64,000 nt of DNA. Origin: Lytechinus pictus. Taxonomy: Eukaryota. Below the pieces are notes generated by a model, which was not told the DNA's origin, did not search any database, and saw only the letters and a program-made list of their open reading frames with translations. Made by a program: the position numbers and the translations under genes. This document shows, one piece after another, positions 7,139 to 64,000 of the stretch (position 1 is its first letter; each line of letters opens with the position of its first letter). The DNA is taken from positions 7,690,001-7,754,000 of the forward strand of contig NC_087245.1 in assembly GCF_037042905.1 (NCBI RefSeq). Reading direction: 5' to 3'.

Positions 7139-8243
7139 TTTTGTCTCGCCTGCGTAGCGGAGCGAGACATAGGTATCACTATTTCCGGTGTCGGCGTCGT
7201 CGTCGTCAACAATTGTGTTGTACACCAAATAACTTTCTAAAGCTTTGAGGTGGGATCACCAAATTCATACCAGAGGTCCATCTCCTGAAGGCACAGGTCA
7301 AGTTGGAATATGAGTCAAATTGGAATAAGGTCAAAGGTCAATGAACTTTCCATGACTGGCACTGTGCTGTGTTGTACACATAATAACTTTCTATATCTTC
7401 GAGGTGGGATCACCAAATTCATACCAGAGGTCCATCTCCTGAAGGCACAGGTCAAGTTCGAATATGAGTCAAATTGGAATAAGGTCAAAGGTCAATGAAC
7501 TTTCCATGACTGGCACTGTGCTGTGTTGTACACATAATAACTTTCTATATCTTCGAGGTGGGATCACCAAATTCATACCAGAGGTCCATCTCCTGAAGGC
7601 ACAGGTCAAGTTCGAATATGAGTCGAATTTGAATAAGGTCAAAGGTCAATGAACTTTCCATGACTGGCACTGTGCTGTGTTGTACACACAATAACTTTCT
7701 ATAGCTTCGAGGTGAGATCGCCAAATTCATAACAGACGTCTATCTCTTGAAGGTACAGGTCAAGTTCGAATATGAGTCGAATTTGAATAAGGTCAAAGGT
7801 ACCATTTATTAGGAAATTCAGAGAGGAATCCAAAACATGCATCAAATAATGTATTGGAGCGGTTTATAAGGTCATGACCTTTGACCTTTACTTTGACCTT
7901 GAGTTTGACCCCCGGACAAATAATTTTTTAACTTGATTTTCGTGTATGATAATTATTAGTATGATATTGACAAAATATGTTAAAATCAATGATGATATTT
8001 TATTTCGTCACCTTTTAAAACTATTCCAAAGATACCATGAAATTTCACTCTAGTCCTACATACTGATATTCATGTTAGTAAAGTGTTTACCAGTTACATG
8101 ATTTCTTCCAATCTTAAGTTACAGTATGTATGCACATGAAAAGAAATTAAGCTCATCAGTTCACAAATGAAACATTAAACATTTATGCTCATGAATAGGT
8201 ATCTGTTTACATGTAGGCATTTTGATGTTCAGCAATATATATC

Positions 8244-8292
<49 letters not shown>

Positions 8293-9650
8293 TCTTGTTA
8301 GTAAATAGGCATATACTCAACAATTTGATGATAAAAGTAAACACTTTACTAACAAGAATATATATATATTGCTGAACATCAAAATGCCTAAACAGATACC
8401 TATTCATGAGCATAAATGTTTAAATTCTATATGTTTATTTCTATAGCTTCGAGGTGGGATCACCAAATTCATACCAGAGGTCCATCTCCTGAAGGCACAG
8501 GTCAAGTTCGAATATGAGTCAAATTGGAATAAGGTCAAAGGTCAATGAACTTTCCATGACTGGCACTGTGCTGTGTTGTACACATAATAACTTTCTATAT
8601 CTTCGAGGTGAGATCACCAAATTCATACCAGAGGTCCATCTCCTGAAGGCACAGGTCAAGTTCGAATATGAGTCGAATTTGAATAAGGTCAAAGGTCAAT
8701 GAACTTTCCATGACTGGCACTGTGCTGTGTTGTACACATACTAACTTTCTATATCTTAGAGGTGGGATCACCAAATTCATACCAGAGGTCCATCTCCTGA
8801 AGGCGCAGGTCAAGTTTGAATATGAGTCGAATTTGAATAAGGCCAAAGGTCAATGAACTTTCCATGACTGGCACTGTGCTGTGTTGTACACACAATAACT
8901 TTCTATAGCTTCGAGGTGAGATCGCCAAATTCATAACAGACGTCCATCTCTTGAAGGTACAGGTCAAGTTCGAATATGAGTCGAAATTGAATAAGGTCAA
9001 AGGTCAATGAACTTTCCATGACTGGCACTGTGCTGTGTTGTACACACAATAACTTTCTATAGCTTCGAGGTGAGATCGCCAAATTCATAACAGAGGTCCA
9101 TCTCTTGAATGTGCAGGCCAAGTTCAAATGTGTGCCGAATTTGAATAAGGTCAAAGGTCAATGAACTTTCCATGACTGGCACTGCTGTGCTGTACACACA
9201 ATAACTTTCTATATCTTCGAGTTAGGATAGCCAAATTCATACAAGAGGTCCATCTTTTGAAGGTGCAGGTCAAGTTCAAATGTGAGTTGAATTTGATTAA
9301 GGTCAAAGGTCAATGAACTTTCCATGACTGGCACTGTGCTTTGTTGTACACATAATAACTTTTTATATCTTCGAGGTAGGATTGCCAAATTCAAACAAGA
9401 GGTCCATCTCTTGAAGGTGCAGGTCAAGTTCGAATGTGAGTTGAATTTGATTAAGGTCAAAGGTCAATGAACTTTTCATGACTGGCACTGCTGTGTTGTA
9501 CACACAATAACTTTCTATAGCTTCGAGGGTGGATCGCCAAACTCGTAACAGAGGTCCATCTAAGTCATATAGCATACATGTAGTTTTGACATGCAGTCTC
9601 TTCATGACTGCAATATGCAGGCGAGACAACGCTTGGCGTTTGCCTTGTTT
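7139..9650 (+). mobile_element. Helentron-type non-autonomous element, family B, with a 154-bp tandem array (interrupted at ~7800-8440)
   Basis: Subterminal IR GTCTCGCCTGC / GCAGGCGAGAC, (GTC)n, 154-bp units (7310 vs 7464), 3' hairpin AACGC-TTG-GCGTT then CTTGTT. Confidence 0.82.
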
Positions 9651-10295
9651 ATTCTTTCCTTGCTCTCTTTCATCCTTTATTTCATTCTTTTTCCTTTTTT
9701 GCTATTCCCTTCCTTCCTTTCTCCCTCCCTTCCTGTTTTCTTCTTTCTTTTTGTCAAGGAATAAAAAAAAAAAAGTCTTTCCTTCATTCATCCTCCATGT
9801 TTTTTCTTTTCCTTTTTTTCGTTCAAACATTCATTCATCATCCCTTCCTTTCTTTTTCTTTCCTTTTTTCTGTTTTATTTATTTCAAAGAATGAAGGAAA
9901 CCTTTCTTCTTTCCTTTATTATTTCTTTCATCCTTTTATTCTAACTTTCTTTCTTTTTTCCTTCATTTTCTTTAATTCATTTTTTCTTTCTTTCTTCTTT
10001 TATAATTATTTTCAGTGATTCCCTTTTTTTATTTTGTGCCACGGTTCGGTCGTTTCGCTTTGTTATATTTTACAAAATACTTTTTTTTTAATCAAAATAC
10101 TGTTTTTTTTCCTCTCAGAATACTGTTTTTGCTTTTTGGAGGTTGGCATCTCTGATGCCTGCGTGTTCTGCTGCATGATGGGGGCCGGTGGCACAGGCGA
10201 AAGTCATGAAAGTGATTGATTGAGTCAGGGGAGCGGGGATTGCCAGGAGCCATTAATCTCCAGGAGCATCCTGGCTAAGGGGGGGGGGGGCAGAC

Positions 10296-10513
10296 CACTC
10301 ACACGTATTGCGAGGTTAGTATACTAACCTGGGGCACCCAAAGGTTCATTACATGCCGCCGTCACAGAAAAATCAAGCCATAGAAGTCGTGTGTTGTGGA
10401 CACAAGAAGTGGGATCCCAGCACTCGCTACCCACTAGTTAGAAATCCACTGCCAAACGCGGTTCATGGTGCGAGGTTAGTATACTAATACTAACCTCGCA
10501 ATATGTGTGAGTG
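10296..10513. mobile_element. Small MITE with CAC termini
   Basis: 27-bp TIR CACTCACAC(G/A)TATTGCGAGGTTAGTAT with one mismatch; no clean TSD. Confidence 0.6.
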
Positions 10514-14393: not shown

Positions 14394-15007
14394 TAGCCTG
14401 GACTCCATGATGATATTTTAAAATATTTTGACATAGATCTATACTTCTTCATCATGGAGCCTTGAAACTCTGTCCATACAGCCATAAGCGACACCTACAT
14501 ACCTGGTTGGATTTCCCTAGGACATCCATATTTACAGGGTGAAATCGGTTTGTACGGTTGAATTTTATTTATCTATGAACCTTCGTACGCCTAATGCGTA
14601 TAAAGGGATAAAATTATTTCACTATAAATGGCAAAAAATGACAAGTTTCTTACCAGACCGATCTCGTGCAGATCCCTCAATCCGTTTGTCAACAAAGCAA
14701 ATACAATAGGCTTGACCCTTGAACCGCTTCGTTATGACGTACCTTCGATTAGCGATGTTACAAAATGCCGTTTTGAAGAACAAATTTCTCGATTAAATTA
14801 TAATTTAACAAATTCTAAAATTTAATACGTTATTATTAGAAATAATTATTTATTAAATTGTAGTATTTGTTTAATGAAAATAAATTTCCTAGGGAAATCC
14901 ATCCGGGTATGTAGGTGTCGCTTATGGCTGTATGGAGAGATTTTCAAGGCTTTATGATGAAGAAGTATGTCAAAATATTTTAAAATATCACGAAGTCCTC
15001 ATGGCTA
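14394..15007. mobile_element. Foldback MITE with ~125-bp inverted arms
   Basis: TGATATTTTAAAATATTTTGACATA...CATAAGCGACACCTACATACC...GATTTCCCTAGG is mirrored at 14888-15007; TSD unclear. Confidence 0.75.
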
Positions 15008-15887: not shown

Positions 15888-17458
15888 TTTTTGTCTCACC
15901 TGCATAGCAGAGTGAGACAATAGGCGCCGCTTTTCCGACGACGGCGGCGGTGTCAACACCAAATGACAGCATAACTTAGAAAGTATATGGACCTAGTTCA
16001 TGAAACTTGGACATAAGGTTAATCAAGTATTACTGGACATCCTGCCTGAATTTCAGGTCACATGACCAAGGTCAAATGTCATTTAGGGTCAATGAACTTA
16101 GACCATGTTGGGGGAATCAACATCAAAATCTTAACCTAAGGTTAAGTTTTTGAAATGTCATCATAACTTAGAAAATATATGGACCTACATGTACATGTAG
16201 TTCATGAAACTTGGACATAAGGTAAATCAAGTATTACTGAACATCCTGCTTGAGTTTGAAGTCACATGACCAAGGTCAAAGGTCATTTAGGGTCAATGAA
16301 CTTTGGCCAAATTGGGGGTATCTGTTGAATTACCATCATAACTTTGAAAGTTTATGGATCTAATTCATGTAATTCATGAAATTTGGACATGAGGTTAATC
16401 AAGTATTACTGAACATCCTGCTTCATTTTCAAGTCACATGACTAAGGTCAAAGGTCATTTAGGGTCAATGAACTTTGGCCAAATTGGGGGTATCTGTTGA
16501 ATTACCATCATAACTTTGAAAGTTTATAGATATGTTTCATGAAACTTGGAAATAAGAGTCATCAAGTATCACTGAACATCTCATGCGAGTTTCAGGTCAC
16601 ATGACCAAAGTCAAAGGTCATTTAAAGTCATCAATTGACATTTGGCCATTTTAGAGGTAATTATTAGATTGCTGTCATAACTTTCAAAGTTTATAGATAT
16701 AGTGTATAAAATGTGTATATAGGGGTAATCAAGTATCATTGACAAGTTTTAGGTCACATGATCAAGGTCAAATGTCAATGAACGCAGAGGCGTCGATCCT
16801 GAACCTCAAAAGAACTCCCACTTCGATTTGCAATAATCTTTTGTTGGATATATATCTTGTTTTTTTAAATCAAAAACGTCCATTAAACTCATTTTTTTCA
16901 GATCGAAATATCAAAATTTTCAGCTCGAGCTTCGCGCTCGCATCTATTGTTCTTTTAGATACCAATCTTAATCATTGGTATAAAAAATGCTTACAGTATC
17001 AAGCTTTCAGGTCAGAATATATAGAAATTTCAGCTCGCTCTCGGCACTCGCATTATATCTGTTTTGTGAGATATGTATCCTCCTCATGAGTTACTACAAA
17101 CAGTCCTTAACAGGTAAGCTTTTCCTGTTTTAAGGTCAGTACATAAAAAATGTCAGCTCGCACTTTGCGCTCGCATTAATTTGTTGGTGAGATACGTGTC
17201 TGTATCTCATGAGTCATATATATGCCTATGTGTGTGTGTGGGGGGGGGGGTTGTATGATCGAGCGCCTTCGGAACGTTGTTCATGATTTTGCCCCCCCAA
17301 TCTGAAAAATGGATCGACGCCCCTGAATGAACGTAGTATTGTATCATTATATGAATGGTGTATTTTGTGAATAATTATTTTATAGTAGTTTTCAAAGTCA
17401 GCACTGCTGCTATGAATCGCGTGATGCAGGTTAGACTGCCAGAGGCGTTCCACTTGTT
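15888..17458 (+). mobile_element. Helentron-type non-autonomous element, family A (longer copy)
   Basis: Same termini as 5493-6084 (TTTTTGTCTCACCTGCATAGCAGAGTGAGAC ... GCCAGAGGCGTTCCACTTGTT) with more internal repeat units. Confidence 0.82.
16785..17325. mobile_element. hAT-type MITE nested in the family A element
   Basis: TIR CAGAGGCGTCGATCC / GGATCGACGCCCCTG; perfect 8-bp TSD AATGAACG. Confidence 0.88.
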
Positions 17459-18376: not shown

Positions 18377-18814
18377 GTATAGTGTTTATCCCATACATAC
18401 ATGTAAATAACATAATGGAACCGTGCTAAATATGTGTGTACAGTTTTCAAGGGACTGCTTGCATTTAATAAGGGTCTAGGGGGTTCACTTGTGGCTAAAT
18501 CATTTTTCAGGGAGATAAAATCATGTTAAATACAGTTAGCAATGAATTATTCATTCCCCTTGGAAATTTTTTTCATTTTTTCTTCAACATGAAATCCGAA
18601 TTGATTTTACTGGTATATCAACTGAGTGCACATAGCCGTCATCTTTGAAATAGTGCTCCTTCTGGTTTCACTCTATTTGTATGAAAATTGTGAGTTGGAG
18701 ATGTTCACAATATTTCACAAGCCACCTTACTACGATTCACCCTTAATTTTCCAAAAAAATACATAGAACTGCAATTGTCCAAGGGTTATGAATAATTTTG
18801 TTGTTGAACATGTA

Positions 18815-19045
18815 CAGTGGTGCTCAAAAGTTAGTGAACCCCACCAGAAAATGAAGATATTTAAAGTGTTCAATTTCTGCCATGTTTCAGATATTTAATT
18901 GTAAAGTCAGGTGATAAAATATTACATTCAATAAAGTTTGTTTCTCTTGGCTTGCTAAACATTGTAGTGTTGTTGTCTACATTCAATACTCAGTATGAAA
19001 GACTGCATTTTGTGATGAGGTTCACTAACTTTTGAGCACAACTTG
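18815..19045. mobile_element. Tc1/mariner-type MITE in Clc intron 3
   Basis: TA|CAGTGGTGCTCAAAAGTTAGTGAACC ... GGTTCACTAACTTTTGAGCACAACTTG|TA. Confidence 0.82.
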
Positions 19046-19666
19046 TACATGTATCTGTATACAATGTACGGCTACTAAAACATCTACTTTAGCTGTATAA
19101 ATAGCACACCCTGGTATGCCATTAGTTACTCTTTTTTTTTTTTTTTTTAATTATTAAAAGCACCCTCTAAGATTAAAGGATTTGAATGCGGGGGGGGGGG
19201 GGGTGGAGGTCAGATCATACAATATGTGGCTTTTAATGTATTTTATCATTTCAGTGTATGGAATTGCAGAAGAGTGAAGACGTGAAAGGCATGAATAAAG
19301 TTGCTATAAAATCAGCATGGGCTTCATTAAAGCAACATAATACATGTGAAATGCAATATATTTAACAAACCCCATTTAAATATTCCCAGTAAACAGAATT
19401 GATCATAATATCTCACTAAGAATATATATTTCAAAAGCTTTTTTATTATTGACTGTTTATTTCCTGCTGAACATCATAGAGCACAAGTGACCACAAACCC
19501 TCATTGTCTGTGAAGAAAGCTCCTATATTAAATCCCTTTCAGTGAGAAATAAATGGCTTACTACTTGAAAAATTTATTTTAACTTACATGTACCCCGAAA
19601 CCACTTTGATTGTCATCTTGTGAGGATAGGTATTTCATAGTCCATTGTTGTAATTGTTTTTTGTAG

Positions 19667-26600: not shown

Positions 26601-26601
26601 T

Positions 26602-45890: not shown

Positions 45891-46659
45891 CCACAGTTAA
45901 TCGATGGTTTCATTGTAGATAAACCATGGCTACCATGGTTTAACCGTGGTTACAACCTTGTTTTTATTGTGGTAAATCCATCGTTTCAAAGTGTCTTTAC
46001 TATGGTTAAGAAAAGGTGAAACAATGATTTTAAAACAGAAACGGCGATAATAACATGGTTATGCAATGAAATCCAAAGTATAACCATGGTTTCACTACAA
46101 ACCAATCATAGAATTACCATGGTCTTGCATCCTCAAAATCATGGTAAAAGCATGGTTAATATTGGATCCATTGTGCGACATACCCATGGTTTAACCATGG
46201 TGCATGATGGTCTGATGATGGTTAAACCATGGTGCACCTTGGTCTGCCCATGGTTTGGACATCCTTCAACCGTGATCGTACTACAGTTACTGTGATTTCA
46301 CTATGGTAAATTTGAAAGGATTTACAACAGTATTACCATTTCCATTCATGAATTCATCGTGCATAAATTATCTCGGCACGAGCAGACGACTTAGACTCGA
46401 ACTATGATCGAAATAAACTTCGAATTAGTGGTGAATAGGCATCATAATTACACAATAGGTGTTATTTTGGGGGCAATGTAGATCAAGTAAGTAGTAGTCA
46501 AGTTGGACATTACTGTTTATTTTGATGATTGTGTTAACCAAGCAAATCGGCCGGTCGACGTATTTTTTTTTTCTTTTCGATGCACCGATTTCGCAAAAAT
46601 CTGCACCGGCGCTCGATGACATCGATCAAACACCGATTTTAAAAACGATCAAAGTTATG

Positions 46660-46940
46660 ATATTTCAAAATCTTTGAGTTTTTTATATTGACACCTAAAC
46701 ATGGCCTAAGTTCAGTAACCCCAGATGACCTTTGACCTTGATCATGTGACCTGAAATGTATAGCAGATCGATCAGTGATACTTGGTTACCCTTATACCCA
46801 AGTTTCATGAAATAGGACCAAATTCTTCCAAAGTTATTATACCATTTCGAAAACTTAACCAAGGTTAAGATTTGGTGTTGACGCCGCCGCCGGAAAAGCG
46901 GCGCCTATGTCTCACTTCTGCTATGCAAGTGAGACAATAA
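46660..46940 (-). mobile_element. 5' fragment of a family A-related Helentron-type element
   Basis: Reverse complement of the family A 5' end (GGTGTTGACGCCGCCGCCGGAAAAGCGGCGCCTA...GTGAGACAA). Confidence 0.75.
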
Positions 46941-47919
46941 AACCGTGGTTCTCAAACTCAAACCAAAGTTTAACTGTAGTTTCACAGCCAGAAACGATGA
47001 TAAATCCCTGGTTCTACAAACCAAACCACAGTAGAGCCATGGTTTTACAACCGACCTCTGGTATAACCATCAACTGCTATACCACCCAAACCAGAGTATA
47101 ACCATGGTCGTATGGTCATACACAGCATACACGTCATCCAAGCTGTCTGCTTTTTACCTCTATCATATTATCTGCTGAAATGAGATAAAGTGGAAACTCA
47201 GTATAAGGAGGACCTTGGGATCATGAACCTTGTTATTATACCTGGAATCTAACTTCACCAGGGCACAAAAACAAAAGGACCTTGGACCGGCAAATTTGAC
47301 TGTTATATTGGGAATCTCTGTATATTGAGTTTCTAGTGTATCAGCGAAAGAAAAGAGTCAATTAAAATACAGTTACAATGTACACATTCGGCTACATCAT
47401 CAAAGAGCCACATTGGTGATGGTATAATAAGAAATTACATTTAAAATTGTAGGTCAGTCAGACAGATAATATGACAGAGGTCATATTCCACACTACACAT
47501 CGCCACTTATTGTATCAATCAGTGAGTGATCACACAATGACCTAAAAAGGGACAAAATGCAAATCAGTGTTAAGAACAACGCAATGAAAACTTTTAATAA
47601 AAATAAAGTCAAACACATCTAATACAGTACTACATGTACAGCTCTGGAAACATTACCCAAGTTAGCTGACAAAAGAGGCAAGTCTTTATACATGGCAGGT
47701 TTGAATACATATCTATAAAAGAACCCACATAAATTTTAATACATTCTTTATAAATTTTGTACTTTTCACACAAACAGTTAGCACAGATATGGCAAGCTAA
47801 ATTAAGTAAGGAATGTATACATGTACTCCTGAAAACTGTTTTATTACTGCTGATTTCATATAACTGATTTGGCCAAGAAGACATGTTAGAAAGACTTTAT
47901 ACGAAAAACAAAAGAAAAT

Positions 47920-48670
47920 AACTAGATGGATTCTCGACTGCACACAGTCGAAATTTATGCCTCCGCCATTGCCACTAGATCAGAAATATGTTGCACAGGT
48001 AATTTCCCATAAATCTTCAAATTTGTTCTATTCTTTTTATATTAAATAATTTATAATTTTTCTTTGGTTTATCACAAGAACAATTTCATGCATACACTGA
48101 CCTACAATCAAACTTGATATATGAAAATAATTTTTAGTATTCATAAAACACAAGAAAATTACTAAATGGATAAAAAAGTTGTAAGTATATGACCTTTATG
48201 ACCTTTGAACTTGGCCCTGCAATCCCCCCAAATTACCCCCCCCCCTATATCAAGCATATATGTACCAAGTTTGGAGTTACTTCCTCTAACATTCCTTTAG
48301 TTACACAAGAACAAGATATTTTAAGGCATACTGACCTCTGTGACCTTTGACCATGTGACCCCAAAATCCAATCAGATCATTCTCCCTCTATTATGTATAT
48401 AAAGAATGTACCAAGTTTGAAGTTATTAGCTCCAATGGTTAAGTTATCACAAGAACAGGACATTTTAAGGTATATAACGACCTCTGTGACCTTTCACCCG
48501 TGACCATAAAATCAAAACAAAGTATTATCCCCCCAGGATATACCCTCATACCAAGTTTGATGTAAAACCACTCCACGGTTCTTGAGATTTCGACAAAACA
48601 AAACGGGACGGACGTACGGACGACCCGAAAACGTAATGCCTCCGGCCACTTCGTTGGCGGAGGCATTAAA
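47920..48670 (-). mobile_element. Helentron-type non-autonomous element, family C
   Basis: Subterminal IR ATGCCTCCGCC / GGCGGAGGCAT, hairpin TCGACTG-CACA-CAGTCGA next to AACTAGA, (ACGG)n microsatellite, internal TGACCT repeats. Confidence 0.8.
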
Positions 48671-48920
48671 CAATCATAAATATTCTAAATAAATTAAGAG
48701 TTAGCACAGATATGTCAAGCTTAATTAAGTATGGAATGCAGAATGATGTCATATACTCCTGAAAACTGTTTTGTTTGGGCTGTTGATCTTATAAGATTTG
48801 GTTTGACTGAGAAGACAAGGTAGAAAGACTATATGTATATACAAAAAAAAATCCCTGAATAAACTAAATAAATTAATGTACTTTTCACACACAGAGGTAA
48901 CACAGATATGGCAAGATTAA

Positions 48921-49492
48921 AGGACAAGTCCACCCCCCCCCCAAAAAAAAAAAAAAAAAAACCTTGATCTGAATAAAAAGAGAAAAATTCAACAAGCATA
49001 ACACTGAAAATTTCATCAAAATCGGAAGTAAAATAAGAAAGTTATGACATTTTAAAGTTTTGCTTCATTTCACAAAACGCTTATATGCACACCTCAGTCG
49101 GTATGCAAATGAGGGAACTGATGACATCACTCACCCACTATTTCTTTTGTATTTTATTATATGAAGTATGAAATATTTTGATTTTCTCGTCATTGTCATG
49201 TGAAATGAAGTTTCATTCGTCCCTGAACACGTGGAATTCAATTATTTTAACATTTTGTGCTTCAGGCAAGGAGGTCCTAATCATCAAATTCGTAAAAATT
49301 GAAATATTGTATAATTCAAACAATAAAAAACAAAAGAAATAGTGAGTGACATCATTGGCTCACCTAGTTGTGCATATCACTGTTTTGTTGAAAATAAGCG
49401 AAACTTTAAAATTTCATGCTAGTTTGATTTTTCTCTATTTATTCTTTTCTCTATTTATTCAAATCAGCATTTTCCTGGGGTGGACTAGACCT
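48921..49492. mobile_element. Kolobok-like MITE (TTAA TSD)
   Basis: TTAA|AGGACAAGTCCACCCC ... GGGGTGGACTAGACCT|TTAA. Confidence 0.82.
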
Positions 49493-49767
49493 TTAATTTG
49501 AAGATTAGAGACATTGAGTCAAATTTTCAAAATCAGTCAATGAAATATACACTACTCAATGCATCCTCTTCCCAGTGATACATGCTAGCAGGTTTTACAT
49601 CCATATTTCATACTGTTAAGGTGACATTGCATTAACAAAGATATTACCTGAATTTCACAAATTTACTTTCGAGCTATATATTCCAAAATATATCCAGATC
49701 ATCTCCTATAGTGGTACATGTTAGCACCAAGTTTCACATTTATATTTCAAATTGTTAAGGTGACAAT

Positions 49768-52700
49768 GGCCCGTATTCTGATAGCGTGGTTTAACTTAAC
49801 CCTGGTCTAAGTGTGGTAATAAACTGCCATATTTAAACCTAGGTTTAAGTTTCGTATTCCGATAGCAAGGTTTAAGTTAACCCTGGTCTAAGTGTGGTAA
49901 TAAATCTTCAAAAAGTTAAACTCGCGCTGGGGGTAGTTTAAGCCTGGTTTAAATCCAACAAATCATGGCCAACAATTTTTTTAGAATGTATGCCTATATT
50001 GCATTGCAAGCTACTTCCTCAGTTTTTAACCGATTTTCATGGAATTTGGAACACACATTGTTCTCAAGGTAAGGAGGTGTAAGAATTTTTTTTTTCTTTT
50101 TTGGAAATTGTGTTGCCATGGAAACAGTATATTATGGCAAAAATTTTGCCGTTTAAAATATTTTTATCAGTTTTCTACCAATTCTCAAGAAAGTTGGCTC
50201 ACACATTGGTTTTGAGGTAAAGATGTGCAAGACACATATTTCCATGTGTCGGAAATTGTGTTGCCATGGTAACGGTATATTATGGCAAAAACTATGTATA
50301 AATCTTGCTGTTCCAACTACTTCCTCAGTTTTTAACCAATTCTCATGAAATTTGGCACATACATTAATGTTGAGGTGAAGATGTCCAAGATATATTTTTG
50401 TCTGTATCAGAAATCGTGTTGCCATGGTAACAACATATCAAATAAAGAAAATAAGGTGAGAATTTGGTAGTTCGAACTCCCATCTTTTTTCAGCCAATGC
50501 TCATAAAATTTGGCACACACATTAGTCTTAAGTTGAAGATGTGCAAGACATATTTTTGTATGTATGAGAAATCATGTTGCCATGGTAACAACATATTACA
50601 TAATGAAATTAGGTGAAAATCTGAACTCCTTCATTAGTTTTCAACTAATTCTTATAAAAGTTGGCTCACACATTGGTTTTGAGGTATAGATCTGCAAGAC
50701 ATATATTTGTGTGTGTTGGAAACTGTGTTGCCATGGTGACAGCATATTAAATCAATAAATGTGTAAACACATCTAATGGATTGAACTGCTTCTTCATTTT
50801 ATGACATAGGCCTACATGTATGCTCATGAAATTTAGAACACGAGGTTTTGACTTGAGGTAAAATAATCTGCAAGGCACATTTTCTCATTCATCAAAATAT
50901 GTGTTTGTACGGTAACTACACAAACCAAAATAAGATTAAGACAATGCTAACTGTTGTTTGGCTACACAGAGAACAACATGTAGCTGTAGGCTTAGTACTA
51001 GTTTTAAGGGGGTTGCTAGACCTCTAACTTTAGATCTCGAACTACAGTCCCACTACAGTCCCTAGCTTTAGATCTAGGTCTAGATCCTTTAGATCTAGTA
51101 ATAGAAATAATCCAACGTTAGATCTCCAGCCTACTTTATTTTAAGGCCTAACGTTAGATGATTAGATCTACTGTAGACTAGCCTCGAGACTAGCCAACAT
51201 TTACTTTTTTATTTATTTAGAATCTACATTGAGCATGTTGAGAGTCTACAAATCTCTAGATCTAGACCTATTACATGTATTACATTGATATAGATCTAGT
51301 TCTAGGTCTAGATAGGGTTTAACTTTTAGTCTAAGTTATTTAGTCTAGATCTAGGCCAGCGTTAGAGATTCTAGATCATACAGTAGACTAGATCAGCCAG
51401 TTAGGGCTAGGCTAGAAATCTAGAATGAATATATAGCACAGACTAACGTTAGGCCTAGGCCTAGATCTAAATTCTTACATAAATCTAGGCCAGGCCTAGT
51501 CTAGTCAAGACTTAACCCAGGGAGCTCCCTGGGTTAGTCAAGACTGAGCTGTTGGTCTAGGTTTGGGCCTGTTTTCTAGTCCTGGATCTGGAAACCTAAA
51601 CGAGTCCCCAAAAATGTTTGAATAAAAAACTCTTCAAAGAAACAGATATGGACCTAAAACAGGAGTAGAGAGATGTCTTGGACTAATTCTAAATTTAGCC
51701 AGGCCCAGTTACTTGGCAAGCAATGCAGCGATAATCAGATCTAACACTGTACTGTCTGTAGACAGGAATAACCGTTGTTTCTGGGGATTTATTTTAAAAA
51801 TTCTGACATTTTACTGTCATATAACATTGCCTTGGTGAGAGAGGCCAACGTAGAGTGTCATAATTCAGCGGAACAACCAATACAGAGACTGTTCAAAGCT
51901 TTTTGTCTAAGACAAATCAGATCCATTCCACTAGATCTAGCCTATGCCTAAGGTTACTTTAGAATAGTACTATAATCTATCCCTGTCCCTAAGCTAAGCC
52001 AGCCTAAGTCATGAATGCTGTTCTAGGCCTAGACCAATATTTATCTTCAGTCTTGGTTGCTCCACTAACTCACTAGACTATGTTTTGCTTCAGGAAAGTA
52101 AAAAAAAAATCAAATAGGCCTAGGCCTAACTTAGTTAGTAAAAACTATGTTCAATTCTCCTCCAAACAATTGGGCCTAGGCCAGATCTAACTATAGGCCT
52201 ATTTAGACCCAAGACTACTCTCAAAAGTTATAAAAAATTCCCTTACTTAAAGTTAGAATAAAGACGTCGACCTCTTAGCTTATTGTTTTAGATCTAGGAC
52301 TAGGGTCTAGACTCTAGTCTAGAGTGGTTGAGGGGAATCTATTCAATTTAGATTTTGACAAACATGAAAATAAATAAATGGGACTGATACTCAAAAAACT
52401 GTGCAGGTCACTCGGTTTGGGGTTGAAATGTTTTAGTAATTAACAAAAATAAATATAATTGAAATGAAAATTTCTTACCATATATGGGTGATGAATGCTT
52501 TTCTTTCACTACAATAGTTGTTATTAGTTTCCATAATATCAATTTTTTTAAGAAAAAACGACTTTAGTGCCATTTTTTCAACTTTGTTGCAATCACCCCT
52601 GCAGCAGTAATTTAACAAAAAGGTGCTAGTCTTGGTTAAAAGAGGGTTATTATTTTCAAAAAGAATTTTAAACCCGGGTTTAACCCAGGTTTAGTTAAAC

Positions 52701-52827
52701 CCGGCTATCAGAATACCAAAATAATTAAACTACACTTGGACCAGAGGTGAGGTTTAGAGGAGGTTTAATTAAACTAGGGTTAACTTTAGACTAGGGTTAA
52801 ATTAAACCTGCTATCAGAATACGGGCC
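49768..52827. mobile_element. Harbinger/ISL2EU-like non-autonomous element nested in the CACTA element
   Basis: Perfect 18-bp TIR GGCCCGTATTCTGATAGC / GCTATCAGAATACGGGCC, repeated subterminally; flanks AAT/CAT; splits a tandem repeat that resumes after 52830. Confidence 0.8.
50000..50930. repeat. ~150-158-bp diverged tandem repeat whose units carry GTTGCCATGG(T/A)AAC-type motifs
   Basis: Motif at 50112, 50260, 50418, 50576 and 50727. Confidence 0.85.
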
Positions 52828-53029
52828 CATGTGTTTAAACAAATAAATTTCACAAATTGACCTTTGACCTACATATTCCAAAATCCATTCAAATCGTCTT
52901 CCTAATGATGGTACATGTTAAACACCAAGTTTTTACATCCATACCTCAAGCTGTTTAGGTGATATTGCTTTGACAAGAAAATAACCTGAATTTTACATAC
53001 AAGGACCACATATGAAGTTCACACCTTAC

Positions 53030-54435
53030 GCAGTCTTGAATAAATTAAGTTTATGAGCAAGTTTGGATAATCCATGTGGAGTTAGAAGTTTCCAATACAT
53101 TCTGTAAATCACTGTAATAGGGAAACATTGAGTAAGCAACTCTATCAACGTCCGTCAGCATTCAATCAATCTCGGGATATTCAGTATATTTCAAAATCTG
53201 GTGAGAAAACTCTGCATAGATTACCTGATCCTCATCAAAGAGCCAAGGATACTTCAGTCGGTCATCAGTGATCCTTGGCCGAGGGACAGAATTTATGATC
53301 CATGCCCTTCTGTCTGCCAGTGTCTTCTGCATGCAGAACTCAACTCTCTTGAAGTCTGGCTGCCTTTTTTTCAGTGCTCATCCACTCTATGTGCCTTGCA
53401 ACAGTGTCAGATTTGGAAAGAATAAAAAATTATACTTAAAAAAAGAAAAAACAAAGAATAAAAAATTATACTTAAAAAAGAAAAAACAAATAGATTTAGA
53501 ATCCTCATTCATTTAGTTTCTGTCAAATCACTTTTCATCCGAGTCCTTAATAGATATTTACAGCAAATTTTACTATAATAGCAAGTTTTATGCAACGACA
53601 CGCCAGTCTTGTTGCCAAAGACAAGAACAGAAAAGCTCCACTTGGTCACACTTTGCGACTATCTGTCACAAACACACTGTACCAGTTAACATTTGGTGAA
53701 AGACATGCATAGCAGAACCATATACATGCGAGTTAGACTAAAAAATTAACTTTAGGTAAAATCTAACAGAGAAATGCATTACAAAATGTCACAACAATGT
53801 AGCCACTGTAAGATTCCTGCATCAATAGTGATACTCAAACATTAGTAAGTTATAATGCAAGAAATATTCTCATATTTTATGCATTTACTCACATTTACTT
53901 AATTCATCAACTCTTAAGGTGCCCCATACACGTTTAAAGCGTTTTTACTGGCCAAGTTCTAATTCTCTTTAATAATCCTTCTGGTTGAGTCTCATATATA
54001 ACTATGTCATGTGAAAAAGAGAAATGCCTTTAAGTTTGGCCATTATCAAGTAAAATATTTATCTAGAAGGATGAATCAATTGCCAAAGAAATTAAATGGC
54101 ATGCACTTGGGCAAGACTATGGCACATTGAGAGTTAATTGGGGTTTCTGTTTGGTACCAGATACTTACTCTCCACCATTCACCAGTTGCTGTGCACCGAG
54201 GACCACAGGTAGTTTGTAATTTTTACTCTCAATGGCCCTGTCACAAGTTCGTCCTCTTCCATGTCTGCAAAATCGTAGAATTTGTCTTGCCATGTCTGCA
54301 GGAAAAATATCTTCTTCTTTCACTCCAAATGTTGTGCACACCACCCTAAGCAGCTCCTGTTTTGAGGTCTCCTCTAACTTGTTGGTTACCAACACCCTTC
54401 TTTGATTTTGGCCATATATCAATAAAAATTTGTAC
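53030..54435 (-). pseudogene. Decayed, spliced SAMD3-like accessory gene of the CACTA element
   Basis: Exon 54169-54435 (CAG acceptor, GTAAGT donor) reads YKFLLIYGQNQRRVL...FGVKEEDIF then, after a frameshift, LQTWQDKFYDFADMEEDELVTGPLRVKI. Exon ending at 53225 reads QPDFKRVEFCMQKTLADRRAWIINSVPRPRITDDRLKYPWLFDEDQ. Resemblance to SAMD3-like proteins judged by eye. Confidence 0.55.
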
Positions 54436-54689
54436 CTGGAATGAAAAGTAATTGATTTTCTTACTAAACCTGAATTTTGAATAAATAATGTATGCAAAGA
54501 GCTTTCAGGATAAATGTGTGTAATCAAAAGATATTGCATGTACATGGACACAAATATTCAGCTTTTGCCTCGATGCAAGAGGCAAACAAGACATATTCCA
54601 ATGTTTGTCTGGGTTTGGTGATACATATTCCATTCATTTATCTTTTTTTCTAGTATTAGTTTCCTGTCTTCGAATATTAGTAAAATTGA

Positions 54690-55282
54690 AGGGATGGTCC
54701 AGGCTGGAAATATTTATATCTCAATAAATAGAAGAAAATTTACAGAGCAAAATGCTAAAAATTTAATCAAAATCGAATAACAAATAAAGTTTTTGAATTT
54801 CAAATGATATTATTCCGGTGAAACAGTTCTAGGCATGTCTTTATGAATATTCATTAGGTTGGCTGGTGATGTCATATCCCCACATGTTCTTTTGTGTTTT
54901 ATTATGTGAAATTTGGTTTAATAAAAAAAATTGCTACCAAGAACTAAAACAATTGGATTGACAACTGATTAAGTGGACTAGTTATTTATTGCCTCAACTT
55001 ATTTCATCATAATGGAGACACATCATTTACACATGTATGAAAAAATGAAAAATTTACGATGTCATGTAATGACATAAGAAAAAATTGAAATGTGACATCA
55101 TCAGCCCACCTATTGAATATTCATGATGATGTGCATATTCCAAAAAATATTGATAAACTTTGAAAATCAATAACTTTGTTATTTGATATCCAAGTTTGAT
55201 GAAATTTTCAGCATTTTACTCTGTGAATTTTACTCCATTTATATACTTTTAGATATAAATATTTTCAGCCTGGACCATCCCT
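54690..55282. mobile_element. Kolobok-like MITE, second family
   Basis: TT(G)A|AGGGATGGTCCAGGCTG ... CAGCCTGGACCATCCCT|TTAA. Confidence 0.8.
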
Positions 55283-57449
55283 TTAACTTCCCGCTACCAG
55301 GAAAGAAAATTGTATTGTAGTCTATTAAAAATTTTGATTTGAAATTAAGATACAGTACTATTACGACACAACGGTCCAGCGATGGTATTTCCATTTTTCA
55401 TCACATGAAAATTCATTCATTTCATAATAACCAACCATACTTAAAATTCATACAAATTTCAGACAATTCCACTATTAGTGACACATATGGAACAACACTT
55501 CCTAAATTAATAACTTAACCCATTTGTGACGAAATTCCACATTACGTGGTTTGGCCTCGGATTTTTCATGAATAGTTGTAGGGCCTATATGAAAATACCA
55601 AGGAGACTCGAAAGTAAACACTAGAACTATTGGCATTACTTTTCTTTTGGTAACAATCATCGCCGCTATGGCTAGGAAAATGCGCATATCTTTCAGTTGT
55701 GTACAACTGTGTAGATCTACTATCGTAATGTGCATGCATGCTGTAGAAATCGTCGAAACAAGGAGCCAGCCACGTTCCCACAACCACACTCTGAACTTAC
55801 CCAAAAAAAAAACAGATTTTCACATGGAAAAACATATAGGCCTACAGACATATGAATTGTACTCCCGCTTAAAAATAAAGGATTTATTAAAACATACTAC
55901 TTTGCAGCTAGCTGATCCATTGATCAAGTATTACTACTAATTGAATGAGGACTAATTAACCCGCAGTAGCAGAGTCTGTAGCCTATGCCTAGAGACTAGA
56001 CCCATCAAAAAAAAAGAATACAGATCAGTGGACTGAATGCTGTTGCCGTTCAAAAGTATAACATTAATTAGGACCACCGACACCGTACTCTAACCGTTAA
56101 CGTAAACTTTAAAAAGTTAAAGTATAGATCTAGATCTAGACCCTAGTCGATAGTCTAACGTTAATTAAGCCAGTAGGAGATCTAGTACAAAATTTTTCTT
56201 CATACTCAATGGCAGCCAACAAGTTTTTTTTTCAGGTAGGCCAAGCGCTAGCCTAAGTTAGGCCTAGGCTAGGGCCGGGACTAGGCTATGAGTACGACGT
56301 GTTCCACCATAATAATAAATCTAGTCCAAAGGCAAAGTCCAAGGCAAGCTCAAGCCTATAAATTATAATATATAGCCATAAATAACTTTTAGGCCCTACA
56401 TGTAGCCAGCCCCAATGCCTGGCTTCAACTTCAAGTTGAAGTCAGAATACATTTCTAGACCCATGCAACACTCCTAATCAAAATAAATGCAGCAACATTA
56501 CAGACTAAGGGCAAGGCAAACTCTTGAAATAATCCACTGCACTGACAGTGACACTGCCTGCTGCAGAGTGCAGTACCGTACGGTTCTACTCGGGCTTGGT
56601 ACGGTACGCGCACAATCCGCCGAGTGTTCAATTTCCGAGTCATGCAAGGCCAAGGAGGTGCCAGGAGTGGACTAATTCACGAGAATGCCCAACAGATTAC
56701 TGATTAGATAAGCTTACTTACCGTTAACTATCTCCTGACAGTTCCATAATTTGTCTGTTCTCCTATAGTTTCAGTTAAAAAATTAGTTGAATGCAGTTAA
56801 TTGCCTGAATTTCATGAACTTGAAGCTTAGCTAGCCCTTGGCCTTCGAAGCATTAAGCTGATTGTATCTGCACGGCCGGCGTACGTGTGTGTGTGCATTT
56901 GTCTATGGTGTGTATAGCATACATGTGCGGGTTGTGCGTTACACATGTGGTACTCGGTGGTACTACTAGTACATCGACGCGCATAAAAAAAGGGCGCGAA
57001 AATGAGCGGGAGGGGTGGGGGGGGGGGGCAGGCGGGGAATGCGCGAAATTCGTGTTGAACACAATTATAAAGTAGACAGGTTCAAAATGACAAATGATAT
57101 ATATATACGTATAGACAGACAATGTTTAGTGACTGGGCAGACATATTTTGAAATTATACAAAAAGATAATATAGTCCTATTAAAAAAAAAAAAAAAACAC
57201 CAGCGGCCACCCCCGGCCCGACTACCTTCAAGATCAACAACAACGGCCCTGCTTAGTTAGTAATTCAGGTCGCAGGCCTTTATAATTTTAGTCATGCCTT
57301 TGGATGGCCGAAAGTTAGTTAGTCAGAAACCACAAATGGTGTTAGTCAAGCCTGTCTTTTTACGAAATACGAGTAATGAAAAACCTCTCGTTAGTCCACA
57401 GCTGAGTTAGTCGTGACAAGCTTTATAGGCCCAGACTAACAAAGTTAGT

Positions 57450-60060
57450 ACCTTGGTAAAACGGGAATTTAATCATGCTTTTTGTAACCAATGTTTTTAC
57501 ACTTTCATTAAACCACGGTTAAAACCATGGTTATATAACAATCATTTTCAAACTATCATAAAACCATGGTTAAAATCATGGTGTATAACCGTCGTTTTCA
57601 ACCTTGGTAAAACGCAAATTTAACCATGGTTTTGTAACCACTGTTTTTACACTCTCATTAAACCACGGTTAAAACCATGGTTATATAACCATCATTTTCA
57701 AACTATCTTAAAACCATGGTTAAAATCATGGTTTATAACCGTCGTTTTCAACCTTGCTAAGACGAATGTTTAACCATGGTTTTGTAACCACTGTTTTGAC
57801 ACTTTCATTAAACCACGGTTAAAACCATGGTTATATAACCATAATTTTCAAACTATCATAAAGCCATGGTTAAAATCATGGTGTATAACCGTCGTTTTCA
57901 ACCATGGTAAAACGGAAATTTAACCATGGTATTGTAACCACTGTTTTTACACTTTCATAAAACCACGGTTAAAACCATGGTTATATAACCATAATTTTCA
58001 AACTATTATAAAACCATGGTTAAAATCATGGTGTATAACCATCGTTTTCAACCATGGTAAAACGGAAATTTAACCATGGTATTGTAACCACTGTTTTTAC
58101 ACTTTCATTGAACCACGGATAAAACCATGGTTATATAACAATCATTTTCAAACTATCATAAAACAATGGTTAAAATCATGGTGTATCACCATCGTTTTCA
58201 ACAATGGTAAAACGGAAATTTAACCATGGTATTGTAACCACTGTTTTTACACTTTCATTAAACCACGGTTAAAACCATGGTTATATAACCATCATTTTCA
58301 AACTATCATAAAACCATGGTTAAAATCATGGTGTATAACCGTCGTTTTCAACCTTGGTGAAACGGAAATTTAACCATGGTTTTGTAACCACTGTTTTTAC
58401 ACTTTCATTAAACCACGGTTAAAACCATGGTTATATAACAATCATTTTCAAACTATCATAAAACCATGGTTAAAATCATGGTGTATAACCGTCGTTTTCA
58501 ACCTTGGTAAAACGCAAATTTAACCATGGTTTTGTAACCACTGTTTTTACACTCTCATTAAACCACGGTTAAAACCATGGTTATATAACCATCATTTTCA
58601 AACTATCTTAAAACCATGGTTAAAATCATGGTTTATAACCGTCGTTTTCAACCTTGCTAAGACGAATGTTTAACCATGGTTTTGTAACCACTGTTTTGAC
58701 ACTTTCATTAAACCACGGTTAAAACCATGGTTATATAACCATAATTTTCAAACTATCATAAAACCATGGTTAAAATCATGGTGTATAACCGTCGTTTTCA
58801 ACCATGGTAAAACGGAAATTTAACCATGGTATTGTAACCACTGTTTTTACACTTTCATAAAACCACGGTTAAAACCATGGTTATATAACCATAATTTTCA
58901 AACTATTATAAAACCATGGTTAAAATCATGGTGTATAACCATCGTTTTCAACCATGGTAAAACGGAAATTTAACCATGGTTTTGTAACCACTGTTTTTAC
59001 ACTTTCATTAAACCACGGTTAAAACCATGGTTATATAACCATCGTTTTCAAACTATCTTAAAACCATGGTTAAAATTTTGGTTTATAACCGTTGTTTTCA
59101 ACCTTGCTAAGACGAATGTTTAACCATGGTCTTGTAACCAATGTTTTTACACTTTCATTAAACCACGGTTAAAACCATGGTTATATATAACAATCATTTT
59201 CAAACTATCATAAAACCATGGTTAAAATCATGGTGTATAACCGTCGTTTTCAACCTTGGTAAAACGGAAATTTAACCATGATTTTGTAACCACTGTTTTT
59301 ACACTTTCATTAAACCACGGTTAAAACCATAATTATATAACCATCATTTTCAAACTATCATAAAACCATGGTTAAAATCATGGTGTATAACCGTCGTTTT
59401 CAACCATGGTAAAACGGAAATTTAACCATGGTATTGTAACCACTGTTTTTACACTTTCATTAAACCACGGTTAAAACCATGGTTATATAACCATCATTTT
59501 CAAACTATCATAAAACCATGGTTAAAATCATGGTGTATAACCGACGTTTTCAACCATGGTAAAACAGAAATTTAACCATGGTATTGTAACCACTGTTTTT
59601 ACACTTTCATTAAACCACGGTTAAAACCATGGTTATATAACCATCATTTTCAAACAATCTTAAAACCATGGTTAAAATCATGGTGTATAACCGTCGTTTT
59701 CAACCTTGGTGAAACGGAAATTTAACCATGGTTTTGTAACCACTGTTTTGACACTCTCATTAAACCACGGTTAAAACCATGGTTATATAACCATCATTTT
59801 CAAACTATCTTAAAACCATGGTTAAAATCATGGTGTATAACCGTCGTTTTCAACCTTGGTGAAACGGAAATTTAACCATGGTTTTGTAACCACTGTTTTT
59901 ACACTCTCATTAAACCACGGTTAAAACCATGGTTATATAACCATCATTTTCAAACTATCTTAAAACCATGGTTAAAATCATGGTGTATAACCGTCGTTTT
60001 CAACCTTGGTAAAACGGAATTTTAACCATGGTATTATAAATACTGTTTTTATGCTATCAT
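57450..60060. repeat. Right subterminal tandem array, 150-bp period (~17 units; 3 x 50-bp subunits; partial 900-bp higher-order repeat)
   Basis: Lines recur every 300 bp; diagnostic variants AACGCAAATT (57611, 58511) and ACCTTGCTAAGACGAATG (57751, 58651) recur 900 bp apart. Confidence 0.95.
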
Positions 60061-61014
60061 AAAACCATGGTTTAAATCATGGTTTTATAACATTGATTTC
60101 CAACCTTAGTAGAACGGGAGTTAAACCAAGGTTTCCTAACCATTGTTTTTATACTACTGTGAAACCATGGTTACAACCATGGTTAAATTACTATGGTTTT
60201 TTTCACCAAAGTAGAACGATGATTTTGTCATGGTTTTATAACTATTGTTTTTTAACTTTCTTAAAACTGTGGTATAATGATGGTTTTAATAACCATGGTT
60301 TTAAAATCGTCATAAAATGACATTTTTATCATGTTATTATAACTATGGTATTTTAACAATGGTATTACCACACTTCCGCCACACATTTACCTTGGTTATG
60401 AATTTAAAACCATGGACTACCATCGATCCATTGTAAAACCGCCCCTAACCATGGTTATACCATGATTACGGTTGTAAAACCATGGTTTTTTTTTATAAGG
60501 GAGATGACGATTATGATGGCAAAATTCATCATGACATGCAATTATTTTAGCCCTAAAATATCCCCGGACTATATATAGCAAAAGAGTGATAATTTCTCTA
60601 TTTACTTCTGAATTCACTGTATCCAAAAGATGCCACTTAGATAATTTCATGGGTAATTATATGTAATGATAGTAATTCTATAGCTACAACTGCTGTGAAA
60701 CTGTCAAACCAAACTGAGAGAACCCGGCAAGTGCCACGAACAATGTACAACGGTTTAGTTCGCGTCTACTCTCACCGCTTTTACGACCGACCCGGCTCAG
60801 ATCCGACGACACTCTACTCTGGAGCTCTGCCCAACAGTGTATACATGTAATGCCGTGTGTCAGTTCGGTGTGTATTTACTATGTATACGATCACGACCAG
60901 CCAGCTAGCCGTATACCGTACGGACGATAATCGTACAGCTTTGAGAGGCTGTGTTGTTATTGAGGTTGCACGGATATAGTCGGGCAACATTGCCTGTTAC
61001 TAAATTTTCACAAG

Positions 61015-61192
61015 ATGGCCACACCGGCAACTTCGTTTTTTGGTCGTCAAGTGGACTTGAATCCCGTAAGAGACAGTGGGATGGATGCACATGGCCACAC
61101 ATTTGTGAAAAAGACTTTTCATAAGCCAACATTTTGTCACCATTGTACGGATATGTTGTGGGGATTCATTGGACAGGGTTACATATGCGAAG
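61015..61192 (+). CDS. DGKQ: Diacylglycerol kinase theta-like, first coding exon (start of the first C1 domain); gene continues beyond the window
   Basis: AAGATGG start; HGHTFVKKTFHKPTFCHHCTDMLWGFIGQGYICE resembles the invertebrate DGK-theta C1a; donor G|GTACGT at 61193. No second exon recognised. Confidence 0.8.
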
Positions 61193-63519
61193 GTACGTAC
61201 GTATACAGTATGTATACTATTGGTTGATTTACACTGCTGTATGTAGTATATATATGTCCTTACTATTCTGGTTTAGTTTAGGTGAAATCATTGTAAAAAA
61301 AAAGTTAGAGCTACGTGACTGCCTGAATCTATATATGATTCTGTTTTTTTAATGATATATAACAATTAACATTGCAATAAAGTTTGAGAGGATATAAATT
61401 CAATTTTCATAAATTTGTAATTGTACACAGATGTCGAGTCTACACTGTGTAGCTACAATTAATTGACTATAAATCGCAACCTAAATTAAATGTGATAAGA
61501 TCAGTTGCACTGTCAACGAGTAACATCGTTGGTGTGTGTAATATTGCCCTACATGTTCACATGCAGTTGATATTAAATTTTAATATTAGAATACATATAT
61601 CATACATATTATACTTGTGCTTTGTGGAAGAAGATTGAGCTTGGACAAAAGCTAGACCTGGAAACTTTGCTGCAGCTTTCTACATTTTTCCAGTACATCC
61701 AGTAATAGGGTGATATAATTTGTGTGATTATACTCTACGTCTATGACTGAGGAGTGTGGGAGGGGATATAGGTTTTCACAGGACGATCTCGGTTGGAACT
61801 TCAGAGTAAATTTGTTTTGTCAAAGAGTAATTTCTGATTGGAACAGACTGCCTAGAAGTAGTGGAAGCCAAATCAGTGGAAGGTTTAATCATCTGTTGGA
61901 CAAGTTTTGGAAGATTTAAAACCTCCATTTCTCAATGAACATACATTTAAAGTTTCACAAGTTCAAACTGTCTAGATAATTGTCAATTACCAGAAGTAAA
62001 GACTGGAAAAACCTACAGGAGAAGTCCTTCATTTCCATACCTGATACTTGTGATGTGATGTGATGGGGCATTTGTGCATCATAACACAAACTTGTTTTTA
62101 TATTTTTTTTCCGATGAAATGTAAATATAAAGAAAATGAGTTATGTAACTACAACTACATTGTAGGCCTGTATTGAGTCAGGATAACCTGGTACATGTAT
62201 GTATGTGATGAGTCAATACCGAGAAATACAGTTGATTATTTTAGGTTGTTTAAAGAACTAGGCCTATCTCTTTACATTATGTATCAAGACACTTGTCAGT
62301 GTGATTGGGCCTGTAGGTAAATAAACAGGGAAGAAAATAGACTGTCCATATTTGCTCAGATATAGGCCTACTGTGTACAAGGTTGTAATTGCACTCAGCA
62401 ACTTCCAAATCCAAATTGATGCTGGACCTGTAACATAATTGTTTATGTAGAATGGCAAATAGTTATGAAAGAACCACTCTGATTGGTCCCTGGTCGGTGC
62501 TTTGAAAAAAGTCCACATATACAGTGATGATCTTGCGTCTTGTGTCCCAGAAAACATGGAAATGTACAGGTAATTCAGTGTATTTTTTTTGCTATCATGA
62601 TCATACCGGTAATCATAATTTGCTTCATGTATATACATTACTGGGAAGATATTCCTCTCTTTTCATGACTGAGTTAGAACAATAGAAAGTGATCAATGCA
62701 ACCAAAGTTTCATTTGCACAAGCAAATTCTGATTTTGAGTGTTCTTTTTCTGGCTTTTGCTGCTATCTATTCGTAAACAAAGTTCACAATGTAAACGTAA
62801 TACTTTTTTTGTTAGGTATGAGACTTTAAGTGTAAGTTATGCATGGTCAAGAAAAAGTTGCATGAAAACATGCTAAAATGTCAAGTTCATCCCAGAAAAA
62901 TGTTGCTTTGAATAACTATAACAATCAAACAAACCTGTACCTATTTGAAAACACTGAAAATTTCATCAAAATTGGATGTAAAATAAGAAAGTTTATATGA
63001 CATTTTCAAATTTTGCTTATTTTTCACAGCACAACACAGTGATAAGAGAGTCAAATTATGTCCCTACGTGTAACTCACTATTTCTTTTGCTTTTTTATTA
63101 TTTGAATTATAATACAATATTTCTATTCTTTTTTTATAGATTTGACAATAAGGACCAACTTGACCCAACCACAAAAGTAATTTTACATGTTCTGGGAGCA
63201 ATAAAACTTATTTTTACATGACAGAGAAAAAAAAGAGAAAAAAGTTCAAAACAGAAAGAGAAGGGGGTTGGAAGTCTTATCAATTTAGAAAAAATACTGT
63301 TACTCAGTTAGTACATTATAAGGGAAAGATGTCTTTATAACAGTGCATTGAGTAATAATAGTAAACAATACCAACTTTGTCTGTGTGTGAATTGAGAAAG
63401 AACCAAAACTACAAAATGATACTTATTATATTATGCTGTCAATGTACATGTATCTGTAAGCAAGGCGAAATGAGGTCAATATGTTAATCAATTCTAAATT
63501 GTGCTGGACCTGTACAAAG

Positions 63520-64000
63520 GGCTTGTATTCAGGTCAATGTTAAAGTTTTATATGTGCAAGACTTTCTTATGGCACATAACTCTGCAACCGTTAGTCACTT
63601 TTCAACCAAGCTTGGAAGGTAGATGTACCTAGGATACCTGCATATTATGCTCCAGTCGGAGGTCACATGGTAAGGTCAAAGGTCATTTTCAGGTGAACGT
63701 TAATAGTTTGTGCAAGACTCTCTTATGACACATAACTCCACAACCGTAAGTCACTTTCCAACCAAACTTGGAAGGTACAGTAGATGTACATGTACAGGGG
63801 ACCTGCATGTTATGCTCCAGTCAGAGGTCACATGGTAAGGTCAGAGGTCATTTTCAAGTCAACATAAAAGTTTACGTGCAAGATTATTACACATACAGTA
63901 ACTCCGCAACCGTAATTAATTTTTCACCCAAACTTGAGTTGTAGATGTACTTAGGAGACCTGCATATCATGGCGCAGTCAGAGGTCCCATGGTATACAGG
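63520..64000 (+). repeat. ~160-170-bp tandem repeat of the Helentron-core type, runs off the window
   Basis: Three units with GAGGTCACATGGTAAGGTCA(A/G)AGGTCA-type and CAACCGT motifs. Confidence 0.75.

Follow-up and report, generated by a model that had tools for sequence, protein, structure and literature searches.

Transposons of the Tc1/mariner type are excised with the non-transferred strand cut a few bases inside the element, and the footprints remaining after end joining are the first or last 2-4 bases; for Sleeping Beauty (SB) the footprint is TACAGTA or TACTGTA (PMC6943129, accessible portion). A stretch of 64,000 nucleotides from the sea urchin Lytechinus pictus (contig NC_087245.1, positions 7,690,001 to 7,754,000; hereafter the window) is rich in words of this form, in which a core of three or four bases stands between two TA dinucleotides. 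These TA-core-TA words are probably germ-line excision footprints of TA-targeting Tc1/mariner-type transposons that have reused the same TAs. As in SB, a TA-bounded, fixed 5-bp addition with a CAG/CTG core is found, together with a CAG-ended, TA-flanked miniature inverted-repeat transposable element (MITE). Unlike SB, the window has mostly 6-bp palindromic forms, with several cores and with stacking; moreover, the SB record comes from a cell-culture assay, whereas the one described here is natural and germ-line.

The Tc1 footprint in C. elegans is TACATGTA, and Minos also leaves a 6-bp footprint; the literature search gave no passage for either. The words in the window resemble both in being six-base additions at TA, and a CA+TG core fits ends of the CAG..CTG type. 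They differ from Tc1 in that its one-sided 4-base products are not enriched here. We know of no GGCC, GATC or ACGT equivalent in print. A literature search with supplements and most subscription papers outside its scope gave no account of TA-core-TA scars across a sea urchin genome, nor of GGCC, GATC or ACGT footprints, and the footprint letters do not occur in the accessible portions of a bindin intron paper (PMC4866015), PMC9976928 and PMC7913693.

TA-bounded insertions in repeat copies

An initial annotation of the window had described several such words as insertions at TA sites. All the motifs that it named were found in place, and its view that they are insertions rather than deletions is borne out at 6825, 16186 and 50807, where LINE (long interspersed nuclear element) homologues or several sister units show the longer form to be derived: i) at 6825-6832, TACATGTA lies in the endonuclease part of open reading frame (ORF) 2 of a dead CR1/L2-type LINE on the minus strand and adds two residues in frame. 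The R..LIDH spacing is 9 residues in the window and 7 in all three of the first homologues; among 150 further homologues, 63 were unmatched by the search pattern, and in the 87 that could be scored the spacing is 7 in 83, 6 in 4 and 9 in none; ii) the double CATG stack at 16186-16199, already recognised as two stacked units, adds 12 bp, and the extra block is missing from seven of the eight other aligned units; and iii) the mixed stack TA-GGCC-TA-CATG-TA at 50807-50820 is exactly 12 bp longer than all four sister units. Thus GGCC, a core that the initial annotation had only guessed at, belongs to an insertion, and one TA can be common to two stacked cores of different kinds. The eighth unit aligned with the CATG stack (16361) carries a different, 9-bp tandem duplication and was rejected as a footprint.

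At 8208-8215, a palindromic element carries TACATGTA in one of its arms, 6 bp more than in the mirrored arm, which has a plain TA at 8389; because the element has only two arms, the direction is not fixed at this site alone. TACAGTA at 63776-63782 and at 63894-63900 each adds 5 bp relative to neighbouring units. These three cases agree with the initial annotation, and two others do so in part. TA-GATC-TA-TA at 14434-14443 is indeed longer than the opposite arm, by 8 bp (GATC plus two TA) and not 6, and with two arms it is unpolarised. The extra 6 bp of TACATGTA at 63787-63794 was seen by eye, and a tandem duplication of ATGTAC explains it equally well. At 8208, 16186, 50807, 63776 and 63894 there is one TA in the empty copy and two TAs around the added bases. 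The added cores are 3-4 bases long, and CATG and GGCC are not copied from the flank. Of the 21 CATG words, a strict ungapped search for empty alleles recovered 8208 alone; the other three- and four-base cores gave no case.

The share of these events among small indels was estimated by a sensitive self-comparison of the window, which covered 15,579 bases and gave 101 gap rows of 4-16 bp; the rows include alignment noise and may repeat the same event, and 50807 was missed. Five of the 101 consist of TA plus a named core plus TA, against 0.1 expected (chance rate 0.00097 per row). TA-bounded rows with any core number 14 of 101 against about 4% expected, and nine of the 14 carry other cores (36307, 16361 and 49160, for example). 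Named-core events are strongly over-represented, yet they are a minority of small indels and not the major source that had been proposed. In reads of four runs on 46300-57440 (80% likeness, repeat-swamped), none of the 12 indel rows listed of 503 hits a word. The indel at 36307, 6 bp long and TA-bounded, has a core that is not a palindrome and falls within a 1.4-kb local duplication (35867-37285 and 37843-39249).

Ordinary slippage, or the loss of bases from one TA to the next in sister copies, would accommodate the nine rows with other cores, the tandem-duplication reading of 63787 and the cases at 8208 and 14434, each of which is based on two copies. It conflicts with the evidence at 6825, 16186 and 50807, where protein homologues or several repeat copies fix the direction, and at 8208, 16186, 63776 and 63894 the insertion can slide by only 2-3 bases, which excludes simple duplication. 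For the polarised sites this explanation is largely refuted, and as an account of the words it is highly improbable.

Enrichment of TA-core-TA words

With tandem arrays masked, TAACGTTA and TACCGGTA occur three times each against 0.3-0.5 expected. Under a Markov-2 model of the same masked window, the GGCC word TAGGCCTA is found 16 times against 0.46 expected, the CATG word TACATGTA 21 against 2.0, and the GATC word TAGATCTA 13 against 0.78. These three rank first to third among the 256 palindromic 8-mers, and their excess is still significant under Markov-4. The ACGT-core word is found 3 times against 0.46 and TACAGTA/TACTGTA merely 16 times against 8.9 (p 0.02). Four-base-core words amount to ~50 in 64 kb, where ~4 are expected, and just 3-5 of the 16 palindromic cores are enriched.

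CATG and GGCC words are dispersed over the window; GATC and ACGT words, apart from the site at 14434, are restricted to two CTAG-rich patches, one at 50.95-52.35 kb and the other at 55.7-56.4 kb. When both patches are masked, the enrichment persists for CATG (19 against 2.0) and GGCC (8 against 0.3), and the remaining counts are 1 against 0.6 for GATC and 0 against 0.4 for ACGT. Nearby templates do not exceed background for CATG (6 of 21 against 18%) or for GGCC (2 of 16 against 4%). All classes lean CpG-poor, with local CpG observed/expected (o/e) medians of 0.35 for CATG, 0.29 for GGCC and 0.29 for GATC against a background of 0.62. The idea that GATC and GGCC mark unmethylated promoters and CATG gene bodies is unsupported by these medians and by the lack of any match for the putative gene beside patch 2. 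TACCGGTA at 4413 was rejected as an insertion, LINE coding sequence aligning there gap-free; at 62604, in a short ATCAT-type repeat lacking a sister copy, TACCGGTA is a possible CCGG-core insertion.

The three- and four-base cores appear to be paired. Each of the six most enriched among the 32 three-base cores (CCG, ACG, GAC, CAG, ACT and GCC) has, read on one of the two strands, the first two bases of an enriched four-base palindrome. The five partner cores occur 61 times against 31 expected and the other 27 occur 338 times against 343, a pairing that was chosen post hoc, after the palindrome counts had been seen. CAG and CATG may therefore come from one type of end, and the counts suggest, as a lead, about five end types with two scars each rather than one family per core.

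Stacking, target preference and the CTAG-rich patches

Adjacent word pairs sharing a TA number 7 among 53 palindromic words, against 0.54 expected window-wide, and CATG, GGCC, GATC and ACGT are linked by shared TAs in one chain. The target motifs given in the accessible portion of PMC2577343 are CAYATATRTG for Tc1, RCAYATATRTGY for SB and CTAG for IS630. Cores of the G..C type rebuild CTAG, the IS630 target, and by eye the flanks of the centre TA in the CATG double stack agree with SB at 8 of 10 positions. GGCC sites have an ATA-TA-type context (A at -1 in 57% against 35%) and fit the Tc1 consensus with p 0.009 in one of four tests; the eight indel-supported sites score 3.75 against 2.73 (p 0.01), and the score of the GATC class is not significant. 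Since scar centres resemble the SB/Tc1 consensus or rebuild CTAG, the scars could be re-hit. The P element offers a parallel (PMC2577343): its events at palindromic targets leave sites that are good targets again, and repeated hits follow. In that system the motif is rebuilt by the ends of the inserting element, whereas for this window the rebuilding is proposed to be done by the excision scar.

Patch 1 (50950-52350) contains 9 GATC, 6 GGCC, 2 ACGT and 7 GAC/GTC cores, including a four-unit stack at 51444-51469, and patch 2 (55690-56410) contains 3 GATC, 2 GGCC, 1 ACGT and 4 GCC/GGC cores. In both, TA-to-TA spacings peak at 5 and 6 (36 and 22 of 158 in patch 1, 13 and 11 of 79 in patch 2); outside the patches each of these spacings accounts for about 7%. 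Patch 1 is CpG-poor (o/e 0.28-0.29) and lies within a 3-kb inverted-repeat element (49768-52827), where summed contig depth in X11 is 434-3628 against 15-66 in neighbouring bins, a depth that is not a copy number. Its words may thus have been inherited with the family and not made at this site. The 3-kb element, which we take to be Harbinger-like, is non-coding, has inverted repeats starting with GGCC and AAT/CAT flanks, interrupts a tandem-unit repeat and holds a nested repeat at ~50.0-50.95 kb in addition to patch 1. Patch 2 has low contig depth and adjoins a CpG-rich stretch (~56.5-57.1 kb) with words, at 56.9-57.1 kb, that are presumably E2F-like.

Two side observations concern these patches. 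Inside patch 1, a 24-bp perfect palindrome (51513-51536) stands between 9-bp direct repeats (51504-51545), and contigs of X1, X11 and X2 show a 33-bp skip there; the structure is a candidate micro-element or a candidate long excision scar of a 9-bp-duplicating transposon. Exon-like frames at 53162-53377 and 54165-54400 (minus strand) have no Pfam match, and for the putative gene beside patch 2, represented by the latter frame, Pfam, Atlas and homologue searches gave no match.

The distribution of the cores raises the question of a mixed origin, in which the CATG, CAG and dispersed GGCC words are footprints and the GATC, ACGT and CTAG patches are something else, either the inherited interior of a multi-copy element or selected protein-binding or nucleosome-positioning motifs near a promoter. 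The loss of the GATC and ACGT excess on masking, the place of patch 1 in an element of high summed depth and the CpG-rich neighbour of patch 2 would fit such an origin, as would the linker 6-mers (GCTAAC, for example) that mark hypomethylated promoters in medaka (PMC5607494, in part). These medaka and zebrafish hypomethylated-domain linkers resemble the words described here in being TAG/CTA-type words near promoters with no known factor. They differ in that the accessible text of PMC5607494 makes no mention of transposons (0 matches) and in that patch 1 is CpG-poor, and a link between the two is speculation. A mixed origin is nevertheless unlikely: a GATC indel lies outside the patches (14434), both patches share the spacing peaks at 5 and 6, all four palindromic cores are joined in one chain, and patch 1 is CpG-poor.

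The MITE at 18815 and the search for source elements

The sole TA-flanked, CAG-ended MITE in the window occupies 18815-19045 (231 bp). It is non-coding and present in a single copy, with a CAGTG left end, inverted repeats of ~41 bp and a right end made imperfect by one extra base. It was correctly recognised in the initial annotation, and shows TA duplication and terminal inverted repeats starting with CAG. On its left, AACATGTA (18807-18814), probably a decayed CATG word, ends in the MITE's left TA, and on its right TACATGTA (19046-19053) begins at the right TA. CATG words thus stand on both sides, where 0.8% of the TAs in the window are preceded by CATG. Either a CAG element left and re-entered the site repeatedly, or the true ends begin with CATG.

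The MITE-end pattern gave 0 matches in viral and metagenome contigs, collections that are also without this genome's other repeats, and neither its family nor a DD34E transposase partner with the same ends was found there; the repeat-family pattern of the window gave 0 matches in viral, metagenome and genome contigs. Stack patterns matched 125 loci in viral contigs, by eye mostly Ser-Arg/Pro-Arg-coding hexamer runs and not comparable; the mixed-stack pattern had 0 matches there.

Models for the origin of the words

The TA-bounded, fixed-core insertions have the form that the accessible portion of PMC6943129 describes for Tc1/mariner footprints, as the initial annotation had suggested. In the proposed pathway, a plain TA would become TA+core+TA, the change seen between sister copies, the core being fixed and not copied from the flank. 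The responsible elements, of the IS630-Tc1-mariner type, would double the TA, and 2-4 of their terminal bases would persist once the broken ends were joined, as is known for this group (PMC6943129). One end type could then yield both a three-base core (CAG/CTG) and a four-base palindrome to which each end contributes two bases (CA+TG); alternatively, the four-base core may come from a self-complementary overhang. The pairs CAG/CATG, GAC/GATC, GGC/GGCC, CCG/CCGG and AC-/ACGT would correspond to about five end types. Each scar would double the TA and create a palindromic context, so that the spot may be struck repeatedly and stacks such as those observed, with a single core or with several, would build up.

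Several points weigh against excision footprints. Neither a transposase nor an autonomous element is present in the window, and its 64 kb contain no TA-flanked element ending in GG..CC, GA..TC or AC..GT, which, with the pairing of three- and four-base cores, also leaves unsupported the initial proposal that each core may report a different transposon family. The sole GGCC-ended element, the 3-kb one, is flanked by AAT/CAT and not by TA, and was rejected for that reason as the source of the GGCC scars. No trio of filled, empty and footprint alleles was obtained from the 64-kb window and its repeat-swamped reads; ACGT has no indel case in the window, and GATC has a single unpolarised one. The CATG (p 0.21) and CAG (p 0.35) classes are without Tc1 target preference, and stacking inside the patches is only 5 against 2.4 and 1 against 0.6. 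Some ACT words are counted from copies of a repeat, and the loss of one base from a four-base core could give a three-base one. GATC words with a nearby template (3 of 13, p 0.04) are borderline. In rice, excisions are mostly messy, with 8 of 94 perfect (PMC4423477, in part). Finally, one-sided +4 products show no enrichment (TACATA 54 against 60, TAGGTA 22 against 24, TAGATA 36 against 38), although a simple 2+2 fill-in model might predict such products; this favours a uniform joining route.

The missing +4 by-products, the failure to find matching elements for most cores in the window and the fact that the strongest cores are perfect palindromes would also suit a process other than transposition that writes fixed palindromes at TA breaks, by hairpin opening, snap-back or templated end joining, or an unknown nuclease/ligase route. 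Hairpin and templated repair copy the flank, yet identical cores stand in unrelated flanks, and for CATG and GGCC the frequency of templates close by is at background. Moreover, enrichment is limited to 3-5 of the 16 palindromic cores, and the CAG-ended MITE has a CATG word on either side. Such a process is accordingly held to be very unlikely, and footprints of Tc1/mariner-type elements are the preferred explanation.

A bolder extension of the footprint explanation, possible though doubtful, is that ~5 end types each leave a pair of scars, of 5 and 6 bases, and that these rebuild preferred palindromic targets, breed further scars and grow into kilobase CTAG-rich patches of transposon-written words. 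CATG-TA-CATG would then serve as a target for Tc1-like preferences, and C-TA-G for IS630-like ones.

Other features of the window

The window is AT-rich, repeat-filled animal DNA. The first coding exon of clathrin light chain lies at ~344-527 (Pfam), with further exons recognised by eye at 17.7-20.6 kb, and a C1-domain exon is found near 61.1 kb (Pfam). Besides the dead LINE at ~4.2-7.1 kb, an open LINE ORF of 1282 aa with endonuclease and reverse transcriptase (Pfam) occupies 26602-30450 on the minus strand and is apparently young. A separate 384-aa ORF (34850-36004, minus strand) has no Pfam match and by eye resembles a LINE ORF1. A repeat family whose copies contain tandem units of 160-172 bp, and which we assume to be Helentron/Tsp-like, is present at 5494-6084, where it interrupts the dead LINE, at 15888-17458, where another element (~16787-17326, by eye), showing an 8-bp duplication, interrupts it in turn, and at 46649-46943. 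Tandem arrays at 44041-45885 (360-bp) and 57450-60091 (150-bp) are built on AACCATGGTT-type palindromes.

Significance of the probable footprints

New in this window are the protein-level polarisation of an insertion, the polarised mixed-core stack, the CATG-sandwiched MITE, the pairing of three- and four-base cores and the CTAG-rich patches. The insertion at 6825 shows that 6-bp in-frame additions can enter coding sequence. The most enriched motifs of such genomes, here TACATGTA, TAGGCCTA and TAGATCTA, are not necessarily bound by factors. A countable trace is seldom left by excision; if the words are footprints, the genome keeps a readable, typed record of hops, from which excision rates, end chemistry and chromatin preference would be measurable for each family without finding the elements. 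If scars do breed scars, CTAG-rich patches would be expected within gene bodies and next to promoters, much of the non-coding word content of marine invertebrates would derive from departed transposons, and the unexplained promoter-linker words of fish may perhaps be transposon-written as well.

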